DNA of 64,000 bases from Escherichia coli (GTDB taxonomy: Bacteria; Pseudomonadota; Gammaproteobacteria; Enterobacterales; Enterobacteriaceae), in the NCBI RefSeq assembly GCF_003334255.1, contig NZ_QOWU01000007.1; one strand, written 5' to 3'. Every line of letters starts with the position of its first letter. The stretch's first letter is position 1. Positions 2,888 through 45,200 of the stretch are shown here, in pieces. The notes under the pieces are model-generated. The model saw only the letters and a list, made by a program, of their open reading frames with translations. It was not told the origin of the DNA and made no database searches. A program made the position numbers and the translations under genes.

Positions 2888-3514
2888 ATGAAAAAGATTT
2901 GGCTGGCGCTGGCTGGTTTAGTTTTAGCGTTTAGCGCATCGGCGGCGCAGTATGAAGATGGTAAACAGTACACTACCCTGGAAAAACCGGTAGCTGGCGC
3001 GCCGCAAGTGCTGGAGTTTTTCTCTTTCTTCTGCCCGCACTGCTATCAGTTTGAAGAAGTTCTGCATATTTCTGATAATGTGAAGAAAAAACTGCCGGAA
3101 GGCGTGAAGATGACTAAATACCACGTCAACTTCATGGGTGGTGACCTGGGCAAAGATCTGACTCAGGCATGGGCTGTGGCGATGGCGCTGGGCGTGGAAG
3201 ACAAAGTGACTGTTCCGCTGTTTGAAGGCGTACAGAAAACCCAGACCATTCGTTCTGCTTCTGATATCCGCGATGTATTTATCAACGCAGGTATTAAAGG
3301 TGAAGAGTACGACGCGGCGTGGAACAGCTTCGTGGTGAAATCTCTGGTCGCTCAGCAGGAAAAAGCTGCAGCTGACGTGCAATTGCGTGGCGTTCCGGCG
3401 ATGTTTGTTAACGGTAAATATCAGCTGAATCCGCAGGGTATGGATACCAGCAATATGGATGTTTTTGTTCAGCAGTATGCTGATACAGTGAAATATCTGT
3501 CCGAGAAAAAATAA
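2888..3514 (+). CDS. dsbA: Periplasmic thiol:disulfide oxidoreductase DsbA
   Basis: 208-aa ORF with a signal peptide ([19 protein letters not shown]) and the CPHC active site ([13 protein letters not shown]). Confidence 0.97.
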
Positions 3515-3531
3515 TTCAATGTAAATTACAT

Positions 3532-3562
3532 AAAGCCCGTGAATATTCACGGGCTTTTTTTA
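3532..3562 (+). terminator. Rho-independent terminator downstream of dsbA
   Basis: AAGCCCGTGAATATTCACGGGCTTTTTTT: perfect inverted repeat plus T-run. Confidence 0.8.
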
Positions 3563-3668
3563 TTATTTAATAAATATAAATACATTCTGATAATGCATCC
3601 TGCCGCTGGACATTATTTCAGCATAAGTGGATATTCAAAGTTTTGCTGTTTTATCAGGGAATATTTAT

Positions 3669-5099
3669 ATGATACGTAAGTCAGCTACAGGTGTTATTGT
3701 TGCGTTAGCCGTAATCTGGGGTGGTGGCACATGGTACACAGGTACGCAAATTCAGCCTGGTGTCGAAAAATTTATTAAAGATTTTAACGATGCTAAAAAG
3801 AAAGGTGAACATGCCTACGATATGACGTTAAGTTATCAAAATTTTGACAAAGGCTTTTTTAATTCCCGTTTTCAAATGCAAATGACATTCGATAACGGTG
3901 CACCCGATCTCAATATCAAGCCAGGCCAGAAAGTTGTATTTGATGTGGATGTTGAGCACGGTCCGTTGCCCATCACAATGTTAATGCATGGTAATGTCAT
4001 CCCAGCACTGGCAGCGGCAAAAGTGAACTTAGTGAATAATGAACTGACACAACCGCTATTTATCGCCGCGAAAAATAAATCGCCCGTGGAAGCGACATTG
4101 CGATTCGCGTTTGGTGGCTCATTCTCTACGACATTAGATGTTGCCCCTGCAGAGTATGGAAAGTTTTCTTTTGGTGAGGGCCAGTTTACTTTTAATGGTG
4201 ATGGTAGTTCATAGTCTAACCTGGATATTGAAGGCAAAGTCGAAGATATTGTTCTGCAATTATCACCAATGAACAAAGTAACGGCAAAAAGTTTTACCAT
4301 TGATTCTCTGGCGCGATTAGAAGAAAAGAAATTTCCGGTTGGTGAAAGCGAGTCGAAATTTAATCAGATTAACATTATCAATCACGGGGAAGACGTTGCC
4401 CAAATCGATGCTTTCGTTGCAAAAACCAGGCTGGATCGCGTTAAAGACAAAGATTATATCAATGTCAATCTCACCTACGAACTTGATAAGTTAACAAAAG
4501 GGAATCAGCAACTCGGTAGTGGTGAGTGGTCATTGATTGCTGAATCTATTGATCCCTCAGCAGTGCGCCAATTTATCATCCAGTATAACATTGCGATGCA
4601 GAAGCAGCTTGCTGCACACCCTGAGTTAGCAAACGATGAAGTTGCTCTGCAAGAAGTGAATGCTGCATTGTTCAAAGAGTATTTACCGTTATTACAAAAA
4701 AGTGAGCCGACCATTAAACAACCGGTAAGATGGAAGAACGCACTCGGCGAACTAAATGCCAATCTGGATATCAGTATTGCCGACCCAGCCAAATCTTCAT
4801 CATCCACAAACAAAGATATCAAATCGCTCAATTTTGATGTGAAGTTACCGCTTAATGTCGTCACAGAAACCGCAAAACAGCTTAATTTATCTGAAGGAAT
4901 GGATGCGGAAAAAGCGCAAAAGCAGGCTGATAAACAAATCAGCGGGATGATGACATTAGGTCAGATGTTTCAGTTAATCACGATTGACAACAATACCGCC
5001 TCGCTGCAGCTGCGTTATACACCGGGTAAAGTTGTTTTTAACGGACAGGAGATGAGCGAAGAAGAATTTATGTCTCGTGCCGGACGTTTTGTTCATTAA
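3669..5099 (+). pseudogene. yihF: DUF945-family protein YihF, reading frame interrupted by an in-frame TAG at 4212-4214
   Basis: Track ORFs 3627-4214 and 4269-5099 are in the same frame and separated only by one TAG (...FNGDGSS*SNLDIEGKVEDIVLQLSPMNKV...). Read through, the product from the Met at 3669 is 476 codons, the length I recall for intact YihF. No obvious SD precedes the ATG at 4269. Confidence 0.6.
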
Positions 5100-5105
5100 A
5101 ATACT

Positions 5106-5135
5106 CACTCGCCTCTGCTCATTCAGAGGCGAGTA
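5106..5135. terminator. Bidirectional terminator hairpin between convergent yihF and yihG
   Basis: CTCGCCTCTG-ctcatt-CAGAGGCGAG: 10-bp perfect stem lying between the two stop codons. Confidence 0.6.
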
Positions 5136-5139
5136 AAAC

Positions 5140-6072
5140 TTACTTATTCTGACGCTGTGATGACATGAGAGACGTCAGAAGCCGGTCTTTTTCCTGCCAC
5201 AATGAGTTCAGCCATTGCTGAAAATGGCGCTTAAAGCTTTTGTCATTGATGTAGTCGCCATGTAACTCATCGGCAATAGGCTGTAAATCCACATGTACGA
5301 CAATCCGCGTCAGTTTACCGCTTAACATATCGAAGAACGGCTGACGGTTATTGTCCGGATAACACAGCGTAACATTAAGCAGTTTATCGAATTGTTTACC
5401 CAGTACATTTAGCGCCATCGCAATGCCTGCCGCCTTTGGTGGCAACAAGTTTTGAAAAGTGGAGTGGGTTTGCTGATGTTTTTCTTGCGTGAAACGGGAG
5501 CCTTCAACGAAATTGACAATGGTGGTGGGATGCAGGCGAAACTTTTCACAAGAACGCCGAGTGGTTTCAACATCTTTACCACGTCGCTCCGGATGACGTA
5601 ATAAATAAGCGCGGGAATAACGCTTCATAAACGGCATATCCAGCGACCAGCACGCCAGGCCAAGAAATGGCACCCAGGCCAGCTGTTGCTTGAGGAAATA
5701 TTTATTCATCGGAATGTGCTTACGAAACAGCACGCACAGTACGACAATATCTGCCCAACTACGGTGGTTACAAATAAGCAGATACCAGTTCTTCTTACTT
5801 AACCCTTCCAGCCCGTGAACTTCCCATTGAAGGTGTGGGTTCAGATGCAGTAATACCGCCAGACCTTCACACCAGCAATACATCATAAAATCACAAAAAC
5901 GCGAAACCTTTCGCCAAATGACTGGCACAGGTAGCAATAGTTTTACAATCCCGGCAATGATGATCGGGACGGAACAAAAAATAGTGACCAAAATGGTCAA
6001 TACGATACTCAGCAAAAGGGTTATCGCAGCGAGTATTCTCGTCATAATGAATTTATTCAAAAGGTTAGCCAT
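5140..6072 (-). CDS. yihG: Putative lysophospholipid acyltransferase YihG (PlsC family)
   Basis: Track ORF 5140-6096 trimmed to the Met at MANLLNKF (310 aa). Contains the HRSWADI acyltransferase motif (HxxxxD) and N-terminal TM helices. Confidence 0.85.
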
Positions 6073-9222: not shown

Positions 9223-9368
9223 GATTCGCCTGAACATGCCTTTTTTCGTAAGTAAGCAACATAAGCTGTCACGTTTTGTGATGGCTATTAGAAATTCCTA
9301 TGCAACAACTGAAAAAAAATTACAAAAAGTGCTTTCTGAACTGAACAAAAAAGAGTAAAGTTAGTCGC

Positions 9369-9477
9369 GTAGGGTACAGAGGTAAGATGTTCTATCTTTC
9401 AGACCTTTTACTTCACGTAATCGGATTTGGCTGAATATTTTAGCCGCCCCAGTCAGTAATGACTGGGGCGTTTTTTA
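9369..9477 (+). ncRNA. spf: Spot 42 small regulatory RNA
   Basis: Exact match to the 109-nt Spot 42 sequence (GTAGGGTACAGAGGTAAGATGTTCTATCTTTCAGACC...GCCGCCCCAGTCAGTAATGACTGGGGCGTTTTTTA) including its intrinsic terminator. Confidence 0.95.
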
Positions 9478-10505: not shown

Positions 10506-10750
10506 ATAGAGCGAGGACGCTAACAGGAACAATGACTCAGGATGAGGGTCAGGAGCGCCAGGAGGCGAAGACAGAGGATTGTCAGGAAGACAAACGTCCG
10601 GAGACGTAATTAAACGGAAATGGAATCAACACGGATTGTTCCGGCTAAAGGAAAAACAGGGTGTGTTGGCGGCCTGCAAGGATTGTAAGACCCGTTAAGG
10701 GTTATGAGTCAGGAAAAAAGGCGACAGAGTAATCTGTCGCCTTTTTTCTT
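10506..10750 (+). ncRNA. csrC: CsrC small RNA (CsrA-sequestering)
   Basis: About 245 nt with many GGA motifs (AGGATGAGGGTCAGGAGCGCCAGGAGGCGAAGACAGAGGATTGTCAGGAAGACA...) ending in a strong terminator (GGCGACAGAGTAATCTGTCGCCTTTTTTCTT). Boundaries approximate. Confidence 0.85.
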
Positions 10751-10816
10751 TGCTTGCTTTCTGTTAGATTCCGCCGCAAATCTATACTGAATAAAACGGC
10801 TAAAAGACGAACCATT

Positions 10817-12995: not shown

Positions 12996-13103
12996 TTTTG
13001 TAGGCCGGATAAGGCGTTTACGCCGCATCAGGCATCTGAGCATGATGCCTGATGCGGCGCTGGTCGCGTCTTATCAGGCCTACGACTTTCTCCGCATCCG
13101 GCA
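12996..13103. repeat. REP/BIME cluster
   Basis: Repeated GTAGGCCGGATAAGGCGTTTACGCCGCATCAGGC-type palindromic units in alternating orientation. Confidence 0.85.
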
Positions 13104-17635: not shown

Positions 17636-17727
17636 GCGCACCATCGTGCAAAAGGGCTGCACCACGATGTGAATGTTGCACCAATATAGTGCTTCAATGG
17701 AAACATTAAGCACCATGTTGGTGCAAT
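17636..17727. promoter_or_regulatory. NtrC enhancer sites upstream of glnA
   Basis: Multiple TGCACC-N5-GGTGCA-like dyads (GCACCATGTTGGTGCA, TTGCACCAATATAGTGC, TGCACCACGATG). Confidence 0.8.
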
Positions 17728-17876
17728 GACCTTTGGATAACCCTTTTTATGCTCCGTGAAAGCGATCACAAAGGGACTCTGCAATACTTGTTTGCGGAGG
17801 ATGTTTGTGATCCTGTTTTGTAGTGCGATTAATCCGTGTACAATAACGCGCTATTTCTAATGCCTGAGGCAAAGTT

Positions 17877-42241: not shown

Positions 42242-45200
42242 TTACACCTTTTCCACATTCACAAGGAAGGACTTAAACTCCGGCGTCTGCGTGTTCGCAT
42301 CACCAACGAATGGCGTTAAAGTATTGGCAATAAAGCCTTTTTTAGCTACGCCTTCATAGCCCCAGTGAATCGGAATACCGATGGTATCGATATCTTTGCC
42401 GTTCGCTTTCAGCGTGCGAATACGTTTGGTCACCACCGCTTTGGCTTTGATATAGCCACGGTTGGAGGAGACTTTCACGGTATCGCCCTGGGCAATGCCA
42501 AGTTTATTCGCCAGCGACTCCCCGATTTCCACAAACTGCTCTGGCTGCAAAATCGCGTTCAACAGCGCGTGTTTGGTCCAGTAGTGGAAGTGCTCGGTCA
42601 GACGATAGGTGGTTCCGACATACGGGAACTTATCGGCTTTACCCAATGCTTCGGCGTCGTCTTTAAAGATACGTGCAGCCGGGTTCGAGATAACGTTTGG
42701 ATGCAGCGGGTTAGTTCCCAGCGGCGTTTCAAACGGCTCGTAGTGTTCCGGGAACGGACCTTCCGCCATCTTATCGAGGGCAAACAGACGCCCCATGCCT
42801 TCCTGCTGCATGATAAACGGCCCGACGCCGCTACCCGGAGGCGCTGCGCTGTAGTCCGGAATATCCCAGCCGGTCCACTTAGTGCCGTCCCATTTCAGCA
42901 ACTGACGCTTCGGATCCCACGGGTTACCCTGCGGATCTGCGGAGGCGCGGTTATACAGAATGCGGCGGTTAAGCGGCCATGCCCATGCCCAGCCCAGCGT
43001 GTTACCGAGGCCAGACGGATCGGCGTTATCACGGCGTGCCATCTGGTTGCCTTCCGGCGTCCAGCTACCGGCGAAAATCCAGCAGCCACAGGAGGTTGTA
43101 CCGTCATCGCGCAATTGGGCGAACGAACTAAGTTGTTGGCCTTTCTTGACGATAACCGCACCGGTTGCCGGATCGGTAATATCGGCCAGCGCCTTACCGT
43201 TGCTCTCCATCGCCACTTCTTCTGAAGATGGCTCATGCGGAATGGCGTAGTTCCATGTCATGTTGAGCACCTGGTCCGGGTTCGCGCCACCCTGTTCGGC
43301 ATACATCTTGCGCAAGCGCAGGAAGATACCGGAGAGGATCTCGCCGTCAGTCAGCGCAATCCCCGGGGCGTCCGCACCTTTCCAGTGCCACTGTAACCAG
43401 CGACCTGAGTTAACGATAGAACCGTTCTCTTCCGCGAAGCAGGTCGATGGCAGACGGAACACTTCGGTCTGGATCTTCGACGAGTCAACTTCGTTCAGCT
43501 CACCGTGGTTCTGCCAGAAGTTAGAGGTTTCAGTGTTCAGTGGGTCGATGGTGACGAGGAACTTCAGTTTCGACAGACAACCGATCACTTTGTTTTTGTT
43601 CGGGAATGAGGCAACAGGGTTAAAGCCCTGGCAGATATAGCCATTGACCTTGCCCTCTTTCATCATCTCGAAGTATTGCAGGACGTCGTAGCCTTTATCC
43701 CACTTCGGCAACCAGTCAAAGCCCCAGCTATTTTCCGCCGTCGCTTTATCACCAAAGAAGGCCTTCATCATAGAGACGAAGAATTTCGGGTAGTTGCCCC
43801 AGTAGTTTACCTGGCCTTCCAGCAGCGGTTTTGGCGTGTTGGCGGTAAGGTAGGTTTGCAGATCGGTCTGCTTCTCGCTTGGCAGCGTCATGTAACCTGG
43901 CAGGCTCTGCGACAGCAGCCCCAGGTCCGTCAGCCCCTGAATATTGGAGTGACCGCGCAGGGCGTTAACGCCGCCGCCTGCCATCCCCATATTGCCGAGC
44001 AGCAGCTGGATCATCGCCATCGTACGAATGTTTTGCGCACCAACGGAGTGTTGCGTCCAGCCGAGGGCATACAGGAACGAGGCAGTTTTATCGTGAGCAC
44101 TGGTTTCTGCGATGTATTCGCAGACTTTCAGGAACGCGTCTTTTGGCGTACCACAGATGTTTTCAACCACATCTGGCGTGTAGCGGGAAACGTGCTGTTT
44201 CAGCAAGTTCCACACGCAGCGCGGATGTTGCAGCGTGGTATCGCGTTTGGCGAAGCCGTTTTCGTCCAGTTCATAAGTCCAGGAGGATTTATCGTACTTG
44301 CGTTTTTCCGCGTCGTAGCCGGTGAACAGGCCATCTTCAAAGCCGTAATCCTCACGCACGATCAGGCTGGCGTTGGTATAGGCTTCGGTGTATTCGCGGT
44401 TGAATTTTTCATTGTTCAGCAGGTACAGCAATACGCCTGACAGGAAAGCAATGTCAGTACCGGAACGAATAGGGGCATAGTAGTCAGCTACCGCCGCCGT
44501 ACGCGTAAAGCGAGGATCGATCACAATCAGCTTCGCGCCGTTGTGAATTTTGGCTTCCATCGCCCAGCGGAACCCGACCGGGTGAGCTTCAGCGGCATTA
44601 CCGCCCATCACCACGACGAGGTTGGCGTTCTTGATGTCGACCCAGTGGTTGGTCATCGCACCGCGACCAAATGTTGGAGCAAGACTTGCTACCGTTGGTC
44701 CGTGTCAGACACGCGCCTGGTTGTCGACCGCGAGCATACCCAGCGCGCGGGAGAATTTTTGCGTTAAATAGCCGGTTTCGTTACTCGACGCGGAAGCACA
44801 CAGCATCCCGGTGGAGAGCCAGCGGTTAACAGTCACGCCTTCGGCGTTTTGCGCAATGTAGTTAGCATCGCGGTCTTCTTTCATCAGTTTGGCGATGCGA
44901 TCAAACGCCTCTTCCCAACTGATTTGCTGCCATTTATCAGAACCTGGCGCACGGTATTCCGGAAACTTCAGACGGCTTTCGGAGTGGATGAAATCCACCA
45001 GGCCAGCGCCTTTCGGACAAAGTGCACCGCGGTTGACCGGGTGATCCGGATCGCCTTCGATATGGAAGATAGATGCTTTGGCGTTTTTTGCTCCGTCACC
45101 GAGGCTGTACATCAACAGCCCACAGCCTACGGAACAATAGGTGCAGGTATTACGGGTTTCGCGGGTGCGCAGCAGTTTATACTGCCGGGTTTCCGCGAGT

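Follow-up and report, generated by a model that had tools for sequence, protein, structure and literature searches.

The yihF locus of the Escherichia coli DNA studied here raises a simple question: do two open reading frames that follow one another in a single frame, parted by one TAG codon, represent two genes, one broken gene, or one intact gene that was read with an error? The window, meaning the whole stretch of DNA that was analysed, is 64,000 nucleotides (64 kb) long. In its list of open reading frames, 3627-4214 starts with GTG and encodes 195 aa, 4269-5099 starts with ATG and encodes 276 aa, and the two share a frame; a direct reading of 3400-5300 gives ...GGT AGT TCA TAG TCT AAC..., with the in-frame TAG at 4212-4214. 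When 3669-5099 is translated, it yields 477 codons with a single internal stop, codon 182, and a terminal stop at 5097-5099; reading through the internal stop yields 476 codons, as many as K-12 YihF has. A sequence-only reading of the window had described two same-frame pieces joined by a 476-codon read-through, and here the list and the translation agree; it had also given 476 codons as the size of intact YihF, which matches the RefSeq entry for K-12 yihF (1431 nt, 476 aa, WP_001333507.1). The frame is flanked by dsbA (2888-3514) and by the convergent yihG (5140-6072), which is the arrangement of the E. coli yihF locus. Its features are as follows.

3669..5099, + strand: yihF pseudogene, 476 sense codons in K-12 and broken at codon 182 here; the coordinates match K-12 yihF in the aligned locus
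4212..4214, + strand: amber codon TAG, created by a T -> A SNP at 4213; K-12 has TTG, Leu182
3669..4211, + strand: predicted translated remnant, a 181-aa N-terminal fragment that comprises the putative membrane-anchor helix and the initial third or so of the beta-sheet
4269..5099, + strand: mechanical open reading frame for YihF residues 201-476, probably not translated, without a Shine-Dalgarno sequence

We compared the segment 3600-5150 with 5426 complete E. coli genomes by megablast, and 5424 of them matched. Only three of these (G1/2, G6/7 and G8, all isolated from the faeces of a healthy individual in Germany) were 100% identical across its 1551 bp, and K-12 strains had one mismatch. Base by base, the 7551 bp around yihF contain zero differences from G1/2 and a sole difference from K-12 DH10B, at 4213, where the window has A and K-12 has T; the comparison with MG1655 gives the same single T/A difference at yihF. 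A T -> A transversion has thus altered the second position of an ancestral TTG (Leu182). The earlier expectation of CAG or a similar codon, with a C/T change at 4212, was mistaken. The stop itself is rare: a 61-nt query centred on it matched 4984 complete genomes and was identical in the same three, while the other 4981 differed, so that it is present in 3 of 5426. RefSeq annotates K-12 yihF as one 476-aa 'YdgA family protein' with TTG at codon 182, and the case that the sequence-only reading had named against itself, a reference that also carries a stop here and two genes, does not arise. For yihF of G1/2 (H4P46_RS25145), RefSeq gives a pseudogene and notes 'internal stop'. In the window, a stop thus interrupts an otherwise intact frame at a position that is a sense codon in orthologues.

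The strain that carries the window is close to G1/2 and distinct from it. Nine SNPs separate the two over 64 kb, which rules out that the window strain is G1/2 itself and makes them different strains that share a yihF allele; over 24 kb, G6/7 and G8 score the same against the window as G1/2 does. Against MG1655, the window has 13 SNPs, small indels near 53779 and in rhaB (3 bp), and a rhaA-rhaD spacer about 370 bp shorter, and most of these differences are common to G1/2. Among the shared ones are the shortened spacer (~53776-53820) and the loss of 3 bp from rhaB (~56198; 1467 nt, compared with 1470 in MG1655). Other SNPs private to the window, when compared with both K-12 and G1/2, change yihX codon 8 at 35045 (GGT -> GTT, Gly8 -> Val) and are synonymous at 43265 (fdoG) and 49161 (frvR). 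G1/2, G6/7 and G8 are closely similar genotypes of the probiotic Symbioflor 2, and five of its six genotypes share the sequence type of K-12 (PMC5138452; PMC5063008), which fits the near-identity of the window and K-12.

A sequencing or assembly error, in a strain whose codon is truly TTG and whose yihF is intact, would also leave the window a single base apart from K-12. The same base, however, occurs in three separately assembled complete genomes, and it occurs again in the window strain, nine SNPs away from G1/2. The exact 181-aa truncated product has several independent accessions in the public protein collection, is encoded on 117 public contigs and is found in 202 index blocks of assemblies (NCBI, ENA, Logan); one index match is to a metagenome contig of 125 kb whose genes have the same order, mobB-mobA-yihD-srkA-dsbA-yihF'-'yihF-yihG-polA. 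Homopolymer indels are a characteristic error type, and a T -> A substitution is not of that type. We regard an error as vanishingly improbable, and on these sequence comparisons assembly error can be excluded as the source of the TAG. Because the window and G1/2 are distinct strains and share the codon, it was inherited by descent within a K-12-like lineage: the change is real and inherited, with no assembly artefact. The sequence-only reading had left the choice between a nonsense allele and a sequence error; the former stands, with TAG in frame where K-12 has TTG, and the latter falls to the three complete genomes and 117 contigs.

The allele can be roughly dated. Substitution rates of a few 1e-7 per site per year are commonly quoted for E. 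coli, and at such rates nine SNPs in 64 kb would put the split between the window strain and G1/2, as a rough estimate, decades to a few centuries ago. The yihF amber allele is older than this split. Nevertheless, the knock-out is recent on an evolutionary scale, because yihF matches K-12 at every other base and has no second lesion.

We next consider whether the two frames could be genes in their own right. Reading the stop as Leu gives a product with a single Pfam DUF945 domain (PF06097; residues 4-464, model positions 3-459 of 460, E = 8.8e-109). Against NCBIfam NF008472, the YihF equivalog model of 476 positions, the first piece aligns to positions 1-181 with 397 bits and the second to positions 201-476 with 589 bits. 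The curated cut-off of this model is 738 bits, and no single protein encoded here exceeds it. As both fragments fall below the cut-off, the locus represents a broken member of the YihF family and not a functional one. Its position between dsbA and yihG is orthologous, with a gene order identical to that of K-12. A scan of 1.84 billion representative proteins returned 537 YihF relatives, and the full-length ones (~470-550 aa) align in one stretch, from about residue 6 to residue 470. In an alignment of 91 diverse homologues, all 91 are continuous across position 182. Some matches carried the label 'DUF945 family protein', and these labels were considered as possible further pseudogenes; both examples that we checked are intact genes.

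The start sites of the two frames also differ. The true yihF start is preceded by the following element.

3653..3661, + strand: weak Shine-Dalgarno sequence ATCAGGGAA of the true yihF start, with an anti-Shine-Dalgarno duplex of -5.1 kcal/mol

By the same calculation, the best duplex before ATG 4269 has 0 kcal/mol, compared with -5.1 kcal/mol at ATG 3669 and -6.6 kcal/mol at dsbA, in agreement with the earlier remark that this ATG has no convincing Shine-Dalgarno sequence. The interval 4215-4499 has no other in-frame ATG, GTG or TTG.

AlphaFold2, given the alignment of 91 homologues, models YihF with high confidence (pLDDT 94.9, pTM 0.89). The model has a long N-terminal helix (residues 3-45) that opens with a hydrophobic segment, GVIVALAVIWGGG, and that we take to be a membrane anchor. 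It continues as one long antiparallel beta-sheet with strands from residue 52 to residue 294, a helical insertion (296-343), and more strands and helices to residue 475; the predicted fold is a high-confidence, family-specific beta-sheet. Codon 182 falls in the middle of the sheet, in the turn that joins strand 171-177 to strand 184-199; the turn that follows strand 184-199 holds Met201, the residue of ATG 4269. According to the model, truncation spares the anchor together with roughly one third of the sheet, and a restart product would be without both the anchor and strand 184-199.

These results bear directly on the idea of a functional split gene, in which polypeptides 1-181 and 201-476 are translated separately and assemble into a working YihF. 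Both frames are intact and otherwise identical to K-12, and gene callers have named both pieces in public records. However, the second frame has no Shine-Dalgarno sequence before its ATG; its product, predicted to have no N-terminal anchor helix, would remain in the cytoplasm; and residues 182-200, a strand of the sheet in the model, would be absent from the pair. Neither a ribosome binding site for a second cistron nor a split that relatives have kept was found: 0 of 91 aligned full-length homologues are split at this site, and the stop occurs in only 3 of 5426 complete genomes. We consider a functional split gene extremely unlikely. The single DUF945 domain that runs across the stop, and the RefSeq pseudogene for the same allele, confirm the earlier claim of one gene and not two. 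Every test supports its main reading, that a nonsense codon interrupts a single yihF gene.

Two elements mark the ends of the yihF transcription unit.

3532..3557, + strand: intrinsic terminator of dsbA, an 11-bp stem followed by a T run, which parts yihF from the upstream operon
5104..5137, no strand assigned: hairpin at the end of the yihF transcript, between the convergent yihF and yihG; its 14-bp stem is terminator-like in the scan only on the minus strand

With these elements on both sides, yihF is predicted to be monocistronic. As yihF is monocistronic and no co-directional gene lies downstream, the premature stop would have no polar effect on its neighbours.

A third possibility is that full-length YihF is still produced, either because a suppressor tRNA decodes the amber codon or because natural read-through of it is high. 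A second amber codon in the window lends this possibility some weight. The rhaR gene (57745-58593, + strand) has an in-frame TAG at codon 203 (58351-58353), where K-12 and G1/2 have TCG (Ser) and the change is C -> A at 58352; the truncation removes the C-terminal AraC-type HTH domain and predicts a rhamnose-negative phenotype. Read-through would account for both amber codons. Two of the 11 coding SNPs that distinguish the window from K-12 create a TAG, with P ~0.01 under uniform mutation, a value that is post hoc and uncorrected. Natural coliforms with amber suppressors were reportedly described by Marshall and Levy in 1980.

The two TAG-creating SNPs prompted us to look for the classical one-step amber suppressors in the 5426 complete genomes. 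No supF allele (tyrT/tyrV with a CUA anticodon) was found in them, supP (leuX, CUA anticodon) had no full-length match, and supD (serU, CUA anticodon) was present only in strain DSM 498. A BLAST search for supE (glnV, CUA anticodon) returned 155 records; among the 60 matches listed, all were K-12 laboratory strains. Suppressor forms of serU, tyrT/tyrV and leuX are absent from G1/2, G6/7 and G8. The glnV cluster of G1/2, read directly, is wild type throughout, with CUG anticodons in glnV and glnX and UUG anticodons in glnU and glnW. The 64-kb window itself contains no tRNA gene.

The sequence around the stop argues in the same direction. The base after the stop is U (TAGT), and UAG-U is said to be an efficient terminator (Poole, Brown and Tate in 1995). 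Rfam finds no recoding element near yihF, and a stop present in 3 of 5426 genomes, with no recoding RNA element nearby, is not a conserved, programmed one. The contrast within the window is fdoG (- strand), which has the expected in-frame TGA at 44705-44707, selenocysteine codon 196, together with the sole SECIS element of the window (44652-44710).

The two amber events can also be ordered. The rhaR TAG occurs in 0 of 5409 matched complete genomes. The exact truncated rhaR product is encoded on 26 public contigs, and its accession, CUJ91930.1, belongs to the same series as those of the yihF pieces, CUJ91580.1 and CUJ91588.1. These records show that the rhaR allele is natural and nested inside the yihF(Am) lineage. 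As it arose later, and in a sub-lineage only, the two amber events are independent. We judge read-through of the yihF codon very unlikely, and suppression in this lineage possible but unlikely. That the lineage tolerates amber codons by way of an unrecognised suppressor, such as a mutated trpT or mutated lysine tRNA, or a tRNA carried by a prophage or plasmid, we judge more improbable still. If a suppressor were at work, yihF(Am182) and rhaR(Am203) would both be partly expressed, and neither would be null.

The explanation that we hold with high confidence, on the basis of these sequence comparisons, is that the window carries a natural yihF allele that has lost its function: one T -> A change turned Leu182 (TTG) into an amber codon in an ancestor of an ST10, K-12-like lineage. 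The mutation, its inheritance and the unity of the gene follow from the comparisons. The yihF(Am) lineage takes in the Symbioflor 2 strains G1/2, G6/7 and G8 and the window strain. In such a strain, ribosomes would start at ATG 3669 and stop at the UAG, and the 181-residue fragment that they release would contain the membrane-anchor helix and the initial third or so of the long beta-sheet. Because no ribosome binding site precedes the next ATG (4269), the other 62% of YihF would not be made. Consequently, we infer a loss of the YihF protein in this strain, and the function of the full-length protein would be lost with it; the 181-aa fragment could be stable and could have part of the activity.

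How this loss may matter has to be set against what has been reported of YihF. Full-text literature searches on yihF and DUF945 brought up no study of function. Like other membrane proteins, YihF is toxic when overexpressed (PMC6116040), and yihF was a hit in a D-alanine export screen but was lost in its last round (PMC10299036). The regulator NsrR binds at yihF in CFT073 by ChIP-seq, and likewise in K-12 by earlier ChIP-chip (PMC5320621). The ChIP-seq and motif tables give AAATTGTATTTGATGTGGATGTT as the motif at yihF in CFT073 (PMC5320621), and a related sequence occurs once in the window.

3931..3953, + strand: 11-1-11 inverted repeat AAGTTGTATTTGATGTGGATGTT, 23 nt, inside the yihF coding region and upstream of the stop

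The CFT073 motif and this repeat differ by one base. As a candidate regulator site, the repeat has an unusual position, about 260 nt into the yihF open reading frame.

Complete genomes seldom lose the locus. Only 38 of the 5424 matched genomes are without at least 80% of it in one piece, and independent inactivations of yihF are seen in LR-03 and cS76a, each with an IS1 insertion, and in 600055, where a 5' deletion is associated with IS1. On this genomic evidence, yihF is generally maintained but dispensable. In volunteers given a single dose of Symbioflor 2, G1/2, G6/7 and G8 combined, which the probes could not separate, stayed in all volunteers past the first week, and the other genotypes were mostly gone after the first week (PMC5138452). 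The persistence of G1/2, G6/7 and G8 implies that full-length YihF is not needed for colonization of the human gut.

The amber allele is a recent and ordinary natural nonsense pseudogene of yihF that marks a lineage and that RefSeq has already flagged, and it reveals no new mechanism. Its significance is modest. It provides a natural knock-out, ready for use, of an envelope protein that is uncharacterised and widely conserved, in well-studied probiotic strains that people have long taken; G1/2, G6/7 and G8 and their K-12 relatives form a near-isogenic pair for studies of DUF945; and the single base is a handy marker of a sub-lineage of ST10.

The window also contains several non-coding elements, one of which overlaps an annotated pseudogene. 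RefSeq lists a 'hypothetical protein, frameshifted; internal stop' at 10532-10698 (- strand), present in K-12 and G1/2, and the CsrC sRNA (10506-10759, + strand; Rfam 278.7 bits) spans it on the opposite strand; this pseudogene is probably an annotation artefact. The remaining elements are listed here.

1-104: 5S rRNA gene, 3' part, at the window edge
9359-9477: Spot 42
17688-17795: ES222 sRNA, upstream of typA
13003-13080 and 62609-62686: two naRNA4 (REP-type) elements

The closest known system is the yihF gene of K-12 (b3861; DUF945/YdgA family, PF06097, NF008472). The window has the same dsbA-yihF-yihG-polA locus and 1430 of 1431 bases identical in the 1431-nt frame, but its codon 182 is TAG instead of TTG, and only residues 1-181 can be made. 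The Symbioflor 2 strains G1/2, G6/7 and G8 (CP060083, CP060061 and CP060057) are the closest complete genomes and have the identical allele, with 100% identity over the 1551 bp compared; they differ from the window by the nine SNPs in 64 kb counted for G1/2, and they lack its rhaR amber codon. LR-03, cS76a and 600055 are commensal or clinical E. coli in which the same gene was inactivated independently, by an insertion or deletion where the window has a point nonsense mutation.
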